This document shows positions 25,172-27,670 of a stretch of 64,000 nucleotides of DNA, in pieces. How positions within the stretch are numbered: the first letter of the stretch is position 1; each line of letters begins with the position of its first letter. The DNA is from an uncultured Pseudomonadota bacterium (GTDB taxonomy: Bacteria > Pseudomonadota > Gammaproteobacteria > Burkholderiales > SG8-39). Position numbers and translations under genes: made by a program. The notes under the pieces were generated by a model that saw only the letters and a list, made by a program, of their open reading frames with translations, did not search any database and was not told the origin of the DNA. The stretch covers positions 205,902 through 269,901 of the forward strand of contig CAVTZJ010000003.1 in assembly GCA_963739205.1 (NCBI GenBank). Direction: 5' to 3'.

Positions 25172-26038
25172 TTAGACCGTCCAAATGCGCGGCTTGCCCC
25201 GTGCCAGGCGGTATATGTCCGCGCAACAACCGTAGATCCGGTCGCCGAGCAGCCGCTGGATCCAGCTGCCCAGCCAGCCGGCGACAAGCGCCATGCGCAG
25301 GCGCGCTGGCGTGCCGCGCAGCCCGTTCGCCATGCGCGCACGCTGGATCTCGTGAAGGTTAAGGTAGATGGCACCGGGTTTCGAGCTCATCCCGCCGAAG
25401 CGCATGTCGACGACTACGTGGTCGACGAACTTTGGCTCGCGCGCCAGCACTTCGCGCAGCAACATGTCGTAGTCGCCAGCGATGCGATAGGATTCGTCGA
25501 AGTAGCCGTGTTCCTCGAACAGCGAACGATGGTGCAGCGTGCCGGGGTGCGGAACCATAGTGCCGGCGAGAAACGCTCGTCGCGCCTCCACCCATGGGCG
25601 CCCCAGAGTCTCCACTACCCCGTCCTTCGCGGTCACGAGGTTGACGCGACCGTAAATGACACGCGGCCCGCCAGGTGCCGCCCCAGCCGCGTCAAGCAGG
25701 TGACGCAGCGCGTGCGCGTCGTGGAATCGATCGTCGCAGCCGAGGAAGCAGACCCAGTGGCCGCGGCTGCGGCGCAGGGCCTTGTTCCAAGCCTCGTACA
25801 GCCCTTTGTCCGGCTCGGAAACGAACTCCGTGACCTTTCCCAAACGCACGTTCGTTTCGACGATCCCTCGCGTGCCGTCGGTGGAGGCGCTGTCGATGAC
25901 GACGACCTCGCGCGAGGCCGCGGTTTGTGCCGCGATGCTATCAAGGCAGCGTTGAAGTGTTTGTGCGCCGTTCTTCACGCCGACGACGACGCTGACCTCT
26001 GGCCAGATTCCCGGAGCGCGACGGGGAAGCGAATTCAT
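25172..26038 (-). CDS. GT2 glycosyltransferase (WcaE-like)
   Basis: VSVVVGVKNGA, IDSASTDGT, SEPDKGLYEAWNK, FLGCDD, YRIAGDYD. Confidence 0.9.
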   Translation of the reverse strand: MNSLPRRAPGIWPEVSVVVGVKNGAQTLQRCLDSIAAQTAASREVVVIDSASTDGTRGIVETNVRLGKVTEFVSEPDKGLYEAWNKALRRSRGHWVCFLGCDDRFHDAHALRHLLDAAGAAPGGPRVIYGRVNLVTAKDGVVETLGRPWVEARRAFLAGTMVPHPGTLHHRSLFEEHGYFDESYRIAGDYDMLLREVLAREPKFVDHVVVDMRFGGMSSKPGAIYLNLHEIQRARMANGLRGTPARLRMALVAGWLGSWIQRLLGDRIYGCCADIYRLARGKPRIWTV

Positions 26039-26201
26039 GCAGGATGGAAATCCACTCGGGTCTGAGGCGACTTGGCTATCGCCGCCTGCATCGCGATCGC
26101 CGAGTTGCGAATGGTATCAGTAGGAGCGGAGGTTGCTGGATGCGGGGCGGCAGGGGTCGGCTCCAAGTTGCCGCGAAATCCGATGGATGCAAAAAGCTAC
26201 T

Positions 26202-26218
26202 TGTTCATTGATTGAACT
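26202..26218. promoter_or_regulatory. Palindromic operator candidate 1: TGTTCA-N5-TGAACT
   Basis: Near-perfect inverted repeat in the AT-rich region upstream of the MarR gene; near-duplicate at 26265. Confidence 0.65.
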
Positions 26219-26243
26219 AAATTCATCATTAAAGATCGCTATT

Positions 26244-26256
26244 TATCAATACGTTG
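26244..26256 (+). promoter_or_regulatory. IHF-consensus site TATCAATACGTTG
   Basis: Exact match to WATCAANNNNTTR with an AT-rich tract upstream; sits between the two palindromes. Confidence 0.55.
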
Positions 26257-26264
26257 CATCGCAA

Positions 26265-26281
26265 TGTTCATTTACTGAACA
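26265..26281. promoter_or_regulatory. Palindromic operator candidate 2: TGTTCA-N5-TGAACA
   Basis: Perfect 6-5-6 inverted repeat ending 20 nt before the MarR start codon. Confidence 0.7.
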
Positions 26282-26301
26282 AATGTGAGATCATATGAGG
26301 C

Positions 26302-26652
26302 GTGCTCACCGATGAAACGCGATATCGAATTCTCAAGCTCCTCGAGGCGGACCCCCGAGCGAGCCAGCGAAAGATCGCGGAGGACTTGGGCATCAGCCTT
26401 GGGCGAGTGAACTACTGCCTGCAGGCTTTGATCGAGAAGGGTCTCGTTAAGGCCAACAACTTCCGCAACAGCGCCAACAAACGCGCTTACCTGTACCTGC
26501 TGACGCCCCGGGGCATCGAGGAGAAGGCGATTGTCACCACCAGATTCCTGCGGAGGAAGCTCGAGGAATACGAAACGCTGAAGCGCGAGGTGGAGCAGTT
26601 GCAGCGCGAAGCGTCCGCAGTGAACCTACCCGACGAAGCGAAGAAGGGGTAG
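26302..26652 (+). CDS. EPS-associated MarR-family transcriptional regulator
   Basis: SQRKIAEDLGISLGRVNYCLQALIEKGLVK and NSANKRAYLYLLTPRGIEEK, the signature of the polysaccharide-locus MarR family. Confidence 0.93.
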   Translation: MLTDETRYRILKLLEADPRASQRKIAEDLGISLGRVNYCLQALIEKGLVKANNFRNSANKRAYLYLLTPRGIEEKAIVTTRFLRRKLEEYETLKREVEQLQREASAVNLPDEAKKG

Positions 26653-26657
26653 GCGCC

Positions 26658-27670
26658 GTGCTGCTCAAGGACAAGAAGATTCTGGTCACTGGGGCCGACG
26701 GCTTCATCGGCTCGCACCTGGTTGAGCACCTGGCCGCACAGGGACACGAAGTGAGAGCCTTCGTGCTGTACAACTCGATCGGTTCGCGCGGCTGGCTGGA
26801 TTCCGCGCAGCTCCCGTCGAGCGTCGAATTCGTCGCGGGCGACATACGCGACGCGCACGAGTGTGCGCGCCGCCATGCAAGGCTGCCAGGTAGTGCTGCA
26901 CCTCGCGGCCCTGATTTCGATTCCGTATTCCTACGAGTCGCCCGAGAGCTATGTCGACACCAACGTGCGCGGCACGATCAACGTGCTGCAGGCGGCCCGC
27001 GACCTGCGAGGTCGCGAAAGGGTCGTGCACACCTCGACCAGCGAAGTCTATGGCACGGCGCGCTTCGTGCCGATCACCGAGGAGCATCCGCTGCAGGGGC
27101 AGTCGCCATACTCGGCCTCCAAGATCGGCGGCAGATCAGATGGCGCACTGCGTATCTTCAGCTCTCTTCGGCGTCCCGGTCGCCATCATGCGGCCTTTCA
27201 ACACCTACGGGCCGCGGCAGTCGGCGCGCGCGGTCATTCCGACGGTCATCTCGCAAATCGCCGCGGGCGCACGCTCAGCTGCGCCGCGGCGTCTGCATCC
27301 GACGCGCGACTTCAACTTCGTCGGCGACACGGTGCGCGCCTTCGTTGCCACTGCCCAGGCGGACGCCGCAATCGGCGAGGTCATCAACATCGGCAGCAAT
27401 TTCGAGATTTCGATCGGCGACGCCGCGCGGCTGATCGCGGAGGTGATGGGCGCGCAGGTGACCGTGGAGCTGGATGCCGGGCGGCTGCGCCCGCAGTCCA
27501 GCGAGGTGGAACGGCTGTGGGCGGACAACGCCAAAGCCAGCCGCCTGCTCGGCTGGGAGCCGGAGTTCGGCGGGCGCGAAGGGCTGCGGCGCGGCCTCGA
27601 GACGACCGTGGCGTGGTTCAGGGACGAGGGAAACCTCCGCCTGTACCGCCCGGCCGAATACAGCATCTGA
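26658..27670 (+). CDS. legB: LegB-like NDP-GlcNAc 4,6-dehydratase, several indels between about 26860 and 27300
   Basis: VTGADGFIGSHL, HLAALISIPYSY, HTSTSEVYGTA, QSPYSASK, RPFNTYGPRQSARAVIP, TRDFNFV, spread over three frames. Confidence 0.87.

Follow-up and report, generated by a model that had tools for sequence, protein, structure and literature searches.

Autoregulated repressors of the MarR type bind a palindromic site, often two per promoter, that lies over their own -10 box or transcription start. Self-repression of this kind, with palindromic operators placed over the repressor's own promoter, is textbook knowledge, and two-operator loops that depend on an architectural protein are also known. 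In the Gal repressosome of E. coli, GalR occupies the operators OE and OI, which are 113 bp apart, and HU sits at the apex. The family TIGR04176 (MarR_EPS) belongs to the same broad class of winged-helix regulators, and its members head variable surface-glycan or exopolysaccharide loci in many, mostly uncultured, bacteria. A full-text literature search returned no published operator, ligand, regulon, or regulatory study of TIGR04176, and within the library searched two papers name the family, both in gene lists; this agrees with a first-pass annotation of the DNA described here, whose author was aware of no operator for this MarR subfamily. The pairing of regulator and operator that we describe appears to be unpublished; the operator is new information about the family and no departure from it.

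The window, by which we mean the whole 64-kb stretch of DNA that was analyzed, carries a MarR_EPS gene preceded by two copies of a 17-bp palindrome. By sequence, the arrangement resembles that of the autoregulated MarR repressors: a 17-bp palindrome, often present as two sites, which in relatives of this locus lies over the -10 box or the start. There is also a resemblance to the Gal repressosome, in that two operators flank a promoter (in relatives, the -10 box is found between them), a candidate site for an architectural protein is found near their midpoint, and the operator spacing is strictly conserved among MarR_EPS loci with a split operator pair. The MarR_EPS operators differ from those of the Gal system in being 63 to 65 bp apart, in having IHF as the candidate protein, and in that the candidate site overlaps the -10 box. 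The mechanism that we propose, a self-repressing winged-helix protein, is ordinary; an operator pair at a constant distance of 65 bp, with a conserved element at its center, would be its one less ordinary feature.

The regulator and its putative operators

The features of the region, in window coordinates, are as follows.

25172-26038, minus strand: divergent GT2 glycosyltransferase gene, the first of a minus-strand chain of GT2, epimerase, and GT4 genes
26039-26301, no strand: divergent intergenic region, whose right-hand part is the most AT-rich of the window
26202-26218, no strand: distal putative operator, TGTTCAttgatTGAACT (also written TGTTCATTGATTGAACT), with the core GTTCA-N5-TGAAC
26244-26256, plus strand: candidate IHF element, TATCAATACGTTG, which fits WATCAANNNNTTR; its ATCAA core is at 26245-26249
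26254-26259, plus strand: hexamer TTGCAT, homologous to the -10 box of relatives but a weak match, placed by column alignment of the 22 loci with 65-bp spacing
26254-26264, no strand: small lineage-specific palindrome, TTGCatcGCAA
26265-26281, no strand: proximal putative operator, TGTTCAtttacTGAACA (also written TGTTCATTTACTGAACA), a perfect palindrome
26302-26652, plus strand: MarR_EPS regulator gene, 116 amino acids, GTG start, with an in-frame TGA just upstream
26302-52389, plus strand: compact gene chain on one strand, with the regulator gene at its head, a predicted 26-kb operon
26658-27670, plus strand: legB, NAD-dependent 4,6-dehydratase, the first biosynthetic gene, 5 nt after the regulator stop codon

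The two palindromes, each of 17 bp, are 63 bp apart from start to start in the window sequence, exactly where the first-pass annotation had placed them. Both are upstream of the regulator gene, the distal one by 100 bp and the proximal one by 37 bp, and 20 bp separate the end of the proximal palindrome from the GTG start. When up to one mismatch was allowed, these two were the sole matches in 64 kb, each being found on both strands, where shuffled sequences give an expectation of 0.09. The core GTTCA-N5-TGAAC, which comprises 10 defined bases of the operator consensus YGTTCA-N5-TGAACR, occurs in just two copies in the whole 3.9-Mb genome (68% GC), and both are here. The annotation had also described this as the most AT-rich stretch of the window, and the 100-bp segment of lowest GC content does start at position 26187, with 30% GC against a window mean of 66.5% and 44% for the next-lowest segment. 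Judged from sequence, the palindromes are very probably docking sites of the regulator that is encoded directly downstream.

The regulator scores 159.6 bits with the TIGR04176 MarR_EPS profile (cutoff, 88), spanning profile positions 2 to 103 of 105, and it shares with the family both its size (about 105 to 116 amino acids) and its place at the head of a surface-glycan locus. It also matches the Pfam families PF01047 (MarR; 25.8 bits, cutoff 24.6) and HTH_24 (61.3 bits). The AlphaFold model, which is that of a monomer (pLDDT 86), has helices at residues 4 to 16, 22 to 29, and 33 to 45, a beta wing at residues 49 to 67, and a last helix at residues 69 to 107, and thus has the winged helix-turn-helix of the MarR type. 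Nearly all of the top 50 matches that Foldseek retrieved from the PDB belong to the MarR family; the nearest solved folds are those of L. lactis ZitR, S. aureus MepR, P. aeruginosa MexR, HcaR, and E. coli MarR, the protein that acts at marO, with TM scores of 0.5 to 0.66.

Matches in the PDB align from about residue 36 to 40 of the target proteins. In the model, no helix precedes the helix-turn-helix unit; helix 1 begins at residue 4 and leads straight into it, whereas canonical MarR proteins have an N-terminal helix that, paired with the C-terminal helices, contributes to the dimer interface and the ligand pocket. A single long C-terminal helix after the helix-turn-helix is a further difference from canonical MarR. 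The usual ligand pocket, between the dimerization and DNA-binding domains, may be absent, and on the evidence of the model the regulator is a trimmed form of the MarR fold that would work like a MarR repressor. Among 44 homologues, invariant residues are found in the recognition helix (S32, G34, N37, C39, and A42) and in the wing (K50, N53, F54, Y63, and Y65), and this invariance of the DNA-reading residues matches that of the operator site. The recognition-helix cysteine, Cys39 of the motif VNYC, is present in 44/44 homologues and is another departure from canonical MarR; we infer that it is a possible candidate for a redox or ligand sensor.

Recurrence of the palindrome at homologous loci

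Homologous loci were compared from two sources, genomes (48 loci) and metagenomes (80 loci). The operator site recurs before about 170 related regulator genes, spanning many taxa. In the genome set, the proximal site is present in 36 of 46 loci, and the core is matched 54 times within 7.2 kb of 160-bp upstream regions, compared with 7 times within 248 kb of flanking DNA; six of those seven flank matches lie farther upstream of the regulator gene, at loci that lack the proximal site. In the metagenome set, the exact core is found upstream of the regulator in 79 of 80 loci. An unbiased count of all 5-mer inverted dyads with gaps of 0 to 10 placed GTTCA-N5-TGAAC at the top rank; it is present in 91 of the 93 unique upstream regions, and the coding controls contain no copy. 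Motif discovery upstream of the homologues, which the first-pass annotation had put forward as a check, therefore gave a positive answer in both sets and by dyad rank. The position of the proximal operator is also kept in most close relatives, at -33 to -40 from the start codon.

The surroundings of the motif are otherwise variable. The gene that follows the regulator encodes LegB in the window, and elsewhere an ABC exporter, a PseB-like dehydratase, a DegT aminotransferase, or Wzm; the genes upstream of the regulator differ between loci in both identity and orientation. The regulator gene is the only constant partner of the motif among the compared loci. Genome-wide copy number of the 10-base core, counted in 41 relatives, did not tell genomes that encode the regulator from those that do not. 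In same-genus genomes of the latter kind, the core is at background level (0 to 3 copies), so that only its position relative to the gene is informative. In two same-order relatives that have the regulator gene, no exact core was found beside the gene among the matches listed. Recurrence at the homologues, together with the lack of any further copy in this genome, favors by a wide margin the reading in which MarR_EPS itself binds the palindromes. The earlier proposal that the adjacent MarR protein binds them and controls the operon that it heads gains strong support from this recurrence, which is comparative in kind.

Promoter geometry and readings of the operator pair

Three operator layouts were distinguished among the loci: a single site, two abutting sites (17 bp apart), and a split pair. 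Paired operators were seen only at spacings of 17 bp or 63 to 66 bp. Single-site loci share the consensus CTTGATTT-N17-TCTAAT, which ends 8 nt before the operator; loci with abutting sites, mostly of the Gallionella type, have TTGACT-N17-TTCAAT, with the -10 box inside the first operator; and split-site loci have an extended -10 box, TGnTAnnAT, which ends 5 nt before the proximal operator. Among relatives, the start of the proximal site is 5 to 8 nt past a recognizable -10 box, and the site hence covers the expected transcription start. Since the operator covers the -10 box or the expected start in every layout, its position is that of a repressor. The split class comprises 24 unique loci including the window; 22 of them have a spacing of 65 bp and one has a spacing of 66 bp, whereas in the window it is 63 bp. 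A separation of exactly six helical turns, as the annotation had it, is thus correct for the window but does not extend to its relatives.

The promoter of the window itself is less readily recognized. The hexamer TTGCAT has no A at position 2, the TG that precedes the -10 box in relatives has been lost, and a consensus promoter scan of positions 25950 to 26400 found no sigma-70-like site; the promoter may be weak, different, or degraded. Readings of the conserved blocks as sites for sigma-54, sigma-E/AlgU, or FNR/CRP were rejected on inspection, as the spacings do not fit, and an Rfam search of the region gave no match. The small palindrome TTGC-ATC-GCAA, which had also been reported between the operators, is indeed there. 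Its pattern, TTGC-N3-GCAA, was found only in the window and in a closely related metagenome contig, L056 (as TTGCgggGCAA); the other split loci carry the -10 box at this place.

We consider it likely that the palindromes are MarR_EPS operators through which the protein represses both its own gene and the 26-kb chain, with the distal site most likely acting cooperatively. One MarR_EPS dimer would occupy each palindrome, whose half-site centers are 10 bp apart and would be read in two successive major grooves. Protein bound at the proximal operator, where relatives start transcription of the regulator gene, would block initiation, so that MarR_EPS would repress its own gene and the downstream chain for a legionaminic-acid glycan. 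The distal operator, centered near -58, would most likely strengthen repression by cooperating with the proximal site, and it may act on the divergent glycosyltransferase genes as well. Binding, repression, and co-transcription of the chain are what we infer from sequence. With a defined 17-bp operator, three layouts, and a clear promoter geometry, the MarR_EPS family becomes directly testable, and in annotation the operator can serve as a sequence mark of where MarR_EPS-headed operons begin.

A homologue of the distal operator is present in all 24 unique split-type loci. The 27 nt beside it are unconserved, yet its spacing from the proximal operator is strictly maintained; a conserved length over an unconserved spacer points to a physical relation between the two operators and argues against two unrelated switches. 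Four loci (L008, L085, L099, and L101) retain both the 65-bp layout and the ATCAA block despite having a co-directional upstream gene, which in L008, L099, and L101 ends 4 to 46 bp before the distal operator. The spacing is also kept in L058 and L077, where the upstream genes are distant. One subgroup of split loci (L057, L058, L067, L072, L076, and L077) has a second ATCAA-N4-TTA, located 14 nt upstream of the distal operator and preceded by a conserved GATTTCCGGGC; the central ATCAA-N4-TTA is degenerate in most of these loci. This arrangement suggests a second promoter-operator unit.

The block between the operators that is best conserved is ATCAA, the core of the candidate IHF element. The IHF consensus is present at 26244-26256, as the first-pass annotation claimed, but the match is not significant by itself, with one occurrence in the window and at least one in 21 of 100 shuffled sequences. 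In an alignment of the 22 loci spaced at 65 bp, the five ATCAA columns hold A in 18, T in 21, C in 22, A in 22, and A in 21, and they are followed by a conserved t.tG-T-TA..AT. Across the split class, WATCAANNNNTTR is matched exactly in 12 of 24 unique loci and with up to one mismatch in 18 of 24, with column and strand unchanged in every case, and an exact match is absent within 200 bp upstream in every single-site and abutting-site locus. The element starts 2 to 3 bp beyond the operator midpoint; by the geometry of the IHF-H' complex (PDB 1IHF), the center of the bend would fall within about 1 to 2 bp of that midpoint. The 25 nt on the 5' side of TATCAATACGTTG are 76% A+T. Both IHF subunits are encoded in the genome, alpha (TIGR00987, 151.2 bits) and beta (TIGR00988, 135.3 bits), with cutoffs of about 120.

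These features would fit a repression loop, in which IHF bound to the central WATCAA-N4-TTR makes a U-turn that brings the operator-bound dimers opposite each other and wraps the promoter into the complex; we regard such a loop as plausible, though less likely than not. The fixed column and strand of the element, its restriction to the split class, its place near the midpoint and the A/T-rich tract that precedes it, the presence of ihfA and ihfB, and a 65-bp spacing that is strict irrespective of the upstream gene all speak for it, and a loop of 65 bp needs a bending protein, as is established from DNA mechanics. The TTR of the candidate site, however, coincides with the T-TA of the conserved extended -10 box, so that WATCAA alone is independent evidence of IHF. 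An IHF site over the -10 box would, moreover, compete with RNA polymerase itself, with no looping required. The ATCAA-N4-TTA module also occurs outside any loop, in the subgroup with a second copy upstream of the distal operator, and in single-operator relatives the same offset from the operator is taken by TTCAA, a weaker and moderately conserved motif. Finally, loci of the split and the single layout are mixed within one clade of poor resolution, and shared ancestry inflates the counts; a protein tree built from 100 columns resolved too few branches for independent origins of the split layout to be counted, and its well-supported branches force at least two changes of layout. Looping by IHF, as the annotation proposed it, is thus supported in part, by the near-central module, the conserved spacing, and the encoded protein, but is weakened by the overlap with the -10 box and by the module's occurrence outside the operator pair.

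It is somewhat unlikely that the two operators act independently and without a loop, the proximal one on the regulator gene and the plus-strand chain, and the distal one at a second promoter, either that of the divergent GT2 gene or one upstream, with ATCAA as a promoter-associated element. In the window, the divergent GT2 gene starts 164 bp from the distal operator, which is upstream of it. In two other loci the distal operator contains the GT2 start codon (L017, positions 745-761, and L081, positions 971-987; ATGAAC, Met-Asn on the minus strand), and in loci of the L064 type this codon is 48 bp away. A start codon inside or near the distal operator implies that the divergent transcript begins to the right of, or at, that operator, as independent action would have it. 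The subgroup in which ATCAA-N5-TA precedes both operators, each with a -10-like hexamer, is in keeping with the same reading. Against it stand the four loci that keep 65 bp and ATCAA next to a co-directional gene, the lack of a conserved minus-strand -10 box between the operators, and the strict spacing over an unconserved spacer, which two independent sites would not be expected to show. The distal operator possibly co-regulates the divergent GT2 chain. We also considered ATCAA as the -35 box (TTGATA) of a leftward promoter; as a general explanation this was rejected, given that a conserved minus-strand -10 box is missing and that four split loci have no divergent gene.

A more far-reaching version of the looping idea treats the split layout as a portable "repressosome cassette," made up of the distal operator, 27 nt, WATCAA, the extended -10 box, and the proximal operator over 65 bp, with an IHF U-turn joining the dimers. 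We think this unlikely; if true, it would mean tight cooperative silencing of horizontally acquired surface-glycan islands, for which C39 could be the release switch. It is highly improbable that the palindromes are bound by some other factor, whether a global regulator or a different protein encoded at the locus, for although the co-occurrence of motif and gene is correlative, a global regulator would have more than the two sites found in this genome, no other gene is constant beside the motif, and the 16 same-genus genomes without the regulator hold the core at chance level only.

The glycan gene chain and its genomic setting

Self-repression by MarR_EPS, the reading that we prefer, would place the whole same-strand chain under the control of the regulator. 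The chain encodes LegB, an aminotransferase, NeuC, NeuB, NeuD, a cytidylyltransferase, WbuX, HisH/HisF-like proteins, a PglK-like ABC flippase, WecB/WecC, and methyltransferases. NeuC, NeuB, NeuD, and the cytidylyltransferase are of the legionaminic-acid type, and WbuX and the HisH/HisF-like proteins form an amidino module. With the genes from LegB to WecB/WecC downstream of the regulator and the divergent GT2 and GT4 genes upstream, the setting is that of a surface-glycan locus, as is typical of MarR_EPS.

The legB gene is split over three frames, which cover positions 1 to 66, 64 to 152, and 149 to 296 of the TIGR04180 profile. The L056 contig, which is 96% identical to the window in DNA sequence and encodes a 100% identical regulator, has an open legB reading frame, and relative to it the window has eight extra single bases, located in three patches. 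Clustered substitutions occur in the same patches, several adjacent to GATC or GCGC. The frameshifts reflect either a real pseudogene, in which case the operon may be decaying, or indel errors in the assembly.

None of the 16 same-genus genomes (G001 to G016) carries the MarR_EPS gene, and most of the family lacks it too. Its absence from the whole of the genus sample marks the locus as accessory, and the glycan locus that it heads looks horizontally acquired.

Eight of the more distant loci (L036, L040, L041, L043, L044, L048, L049, and L055) have a conserved same-strand element, GGCGGTAGC(G/A)(T/C)GCC, upstream of the regulator gene. An example is at positions 2911-2924 of L041; where a palindrome was seen nearby (as in L041 and L043), the element lies downstream of it. 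A search of Rfam with distant loci that carry the element gave no hit, and a sigma-54 promoter would require another spacing. The element may act as a leader RNA or may be bound by a second factor.
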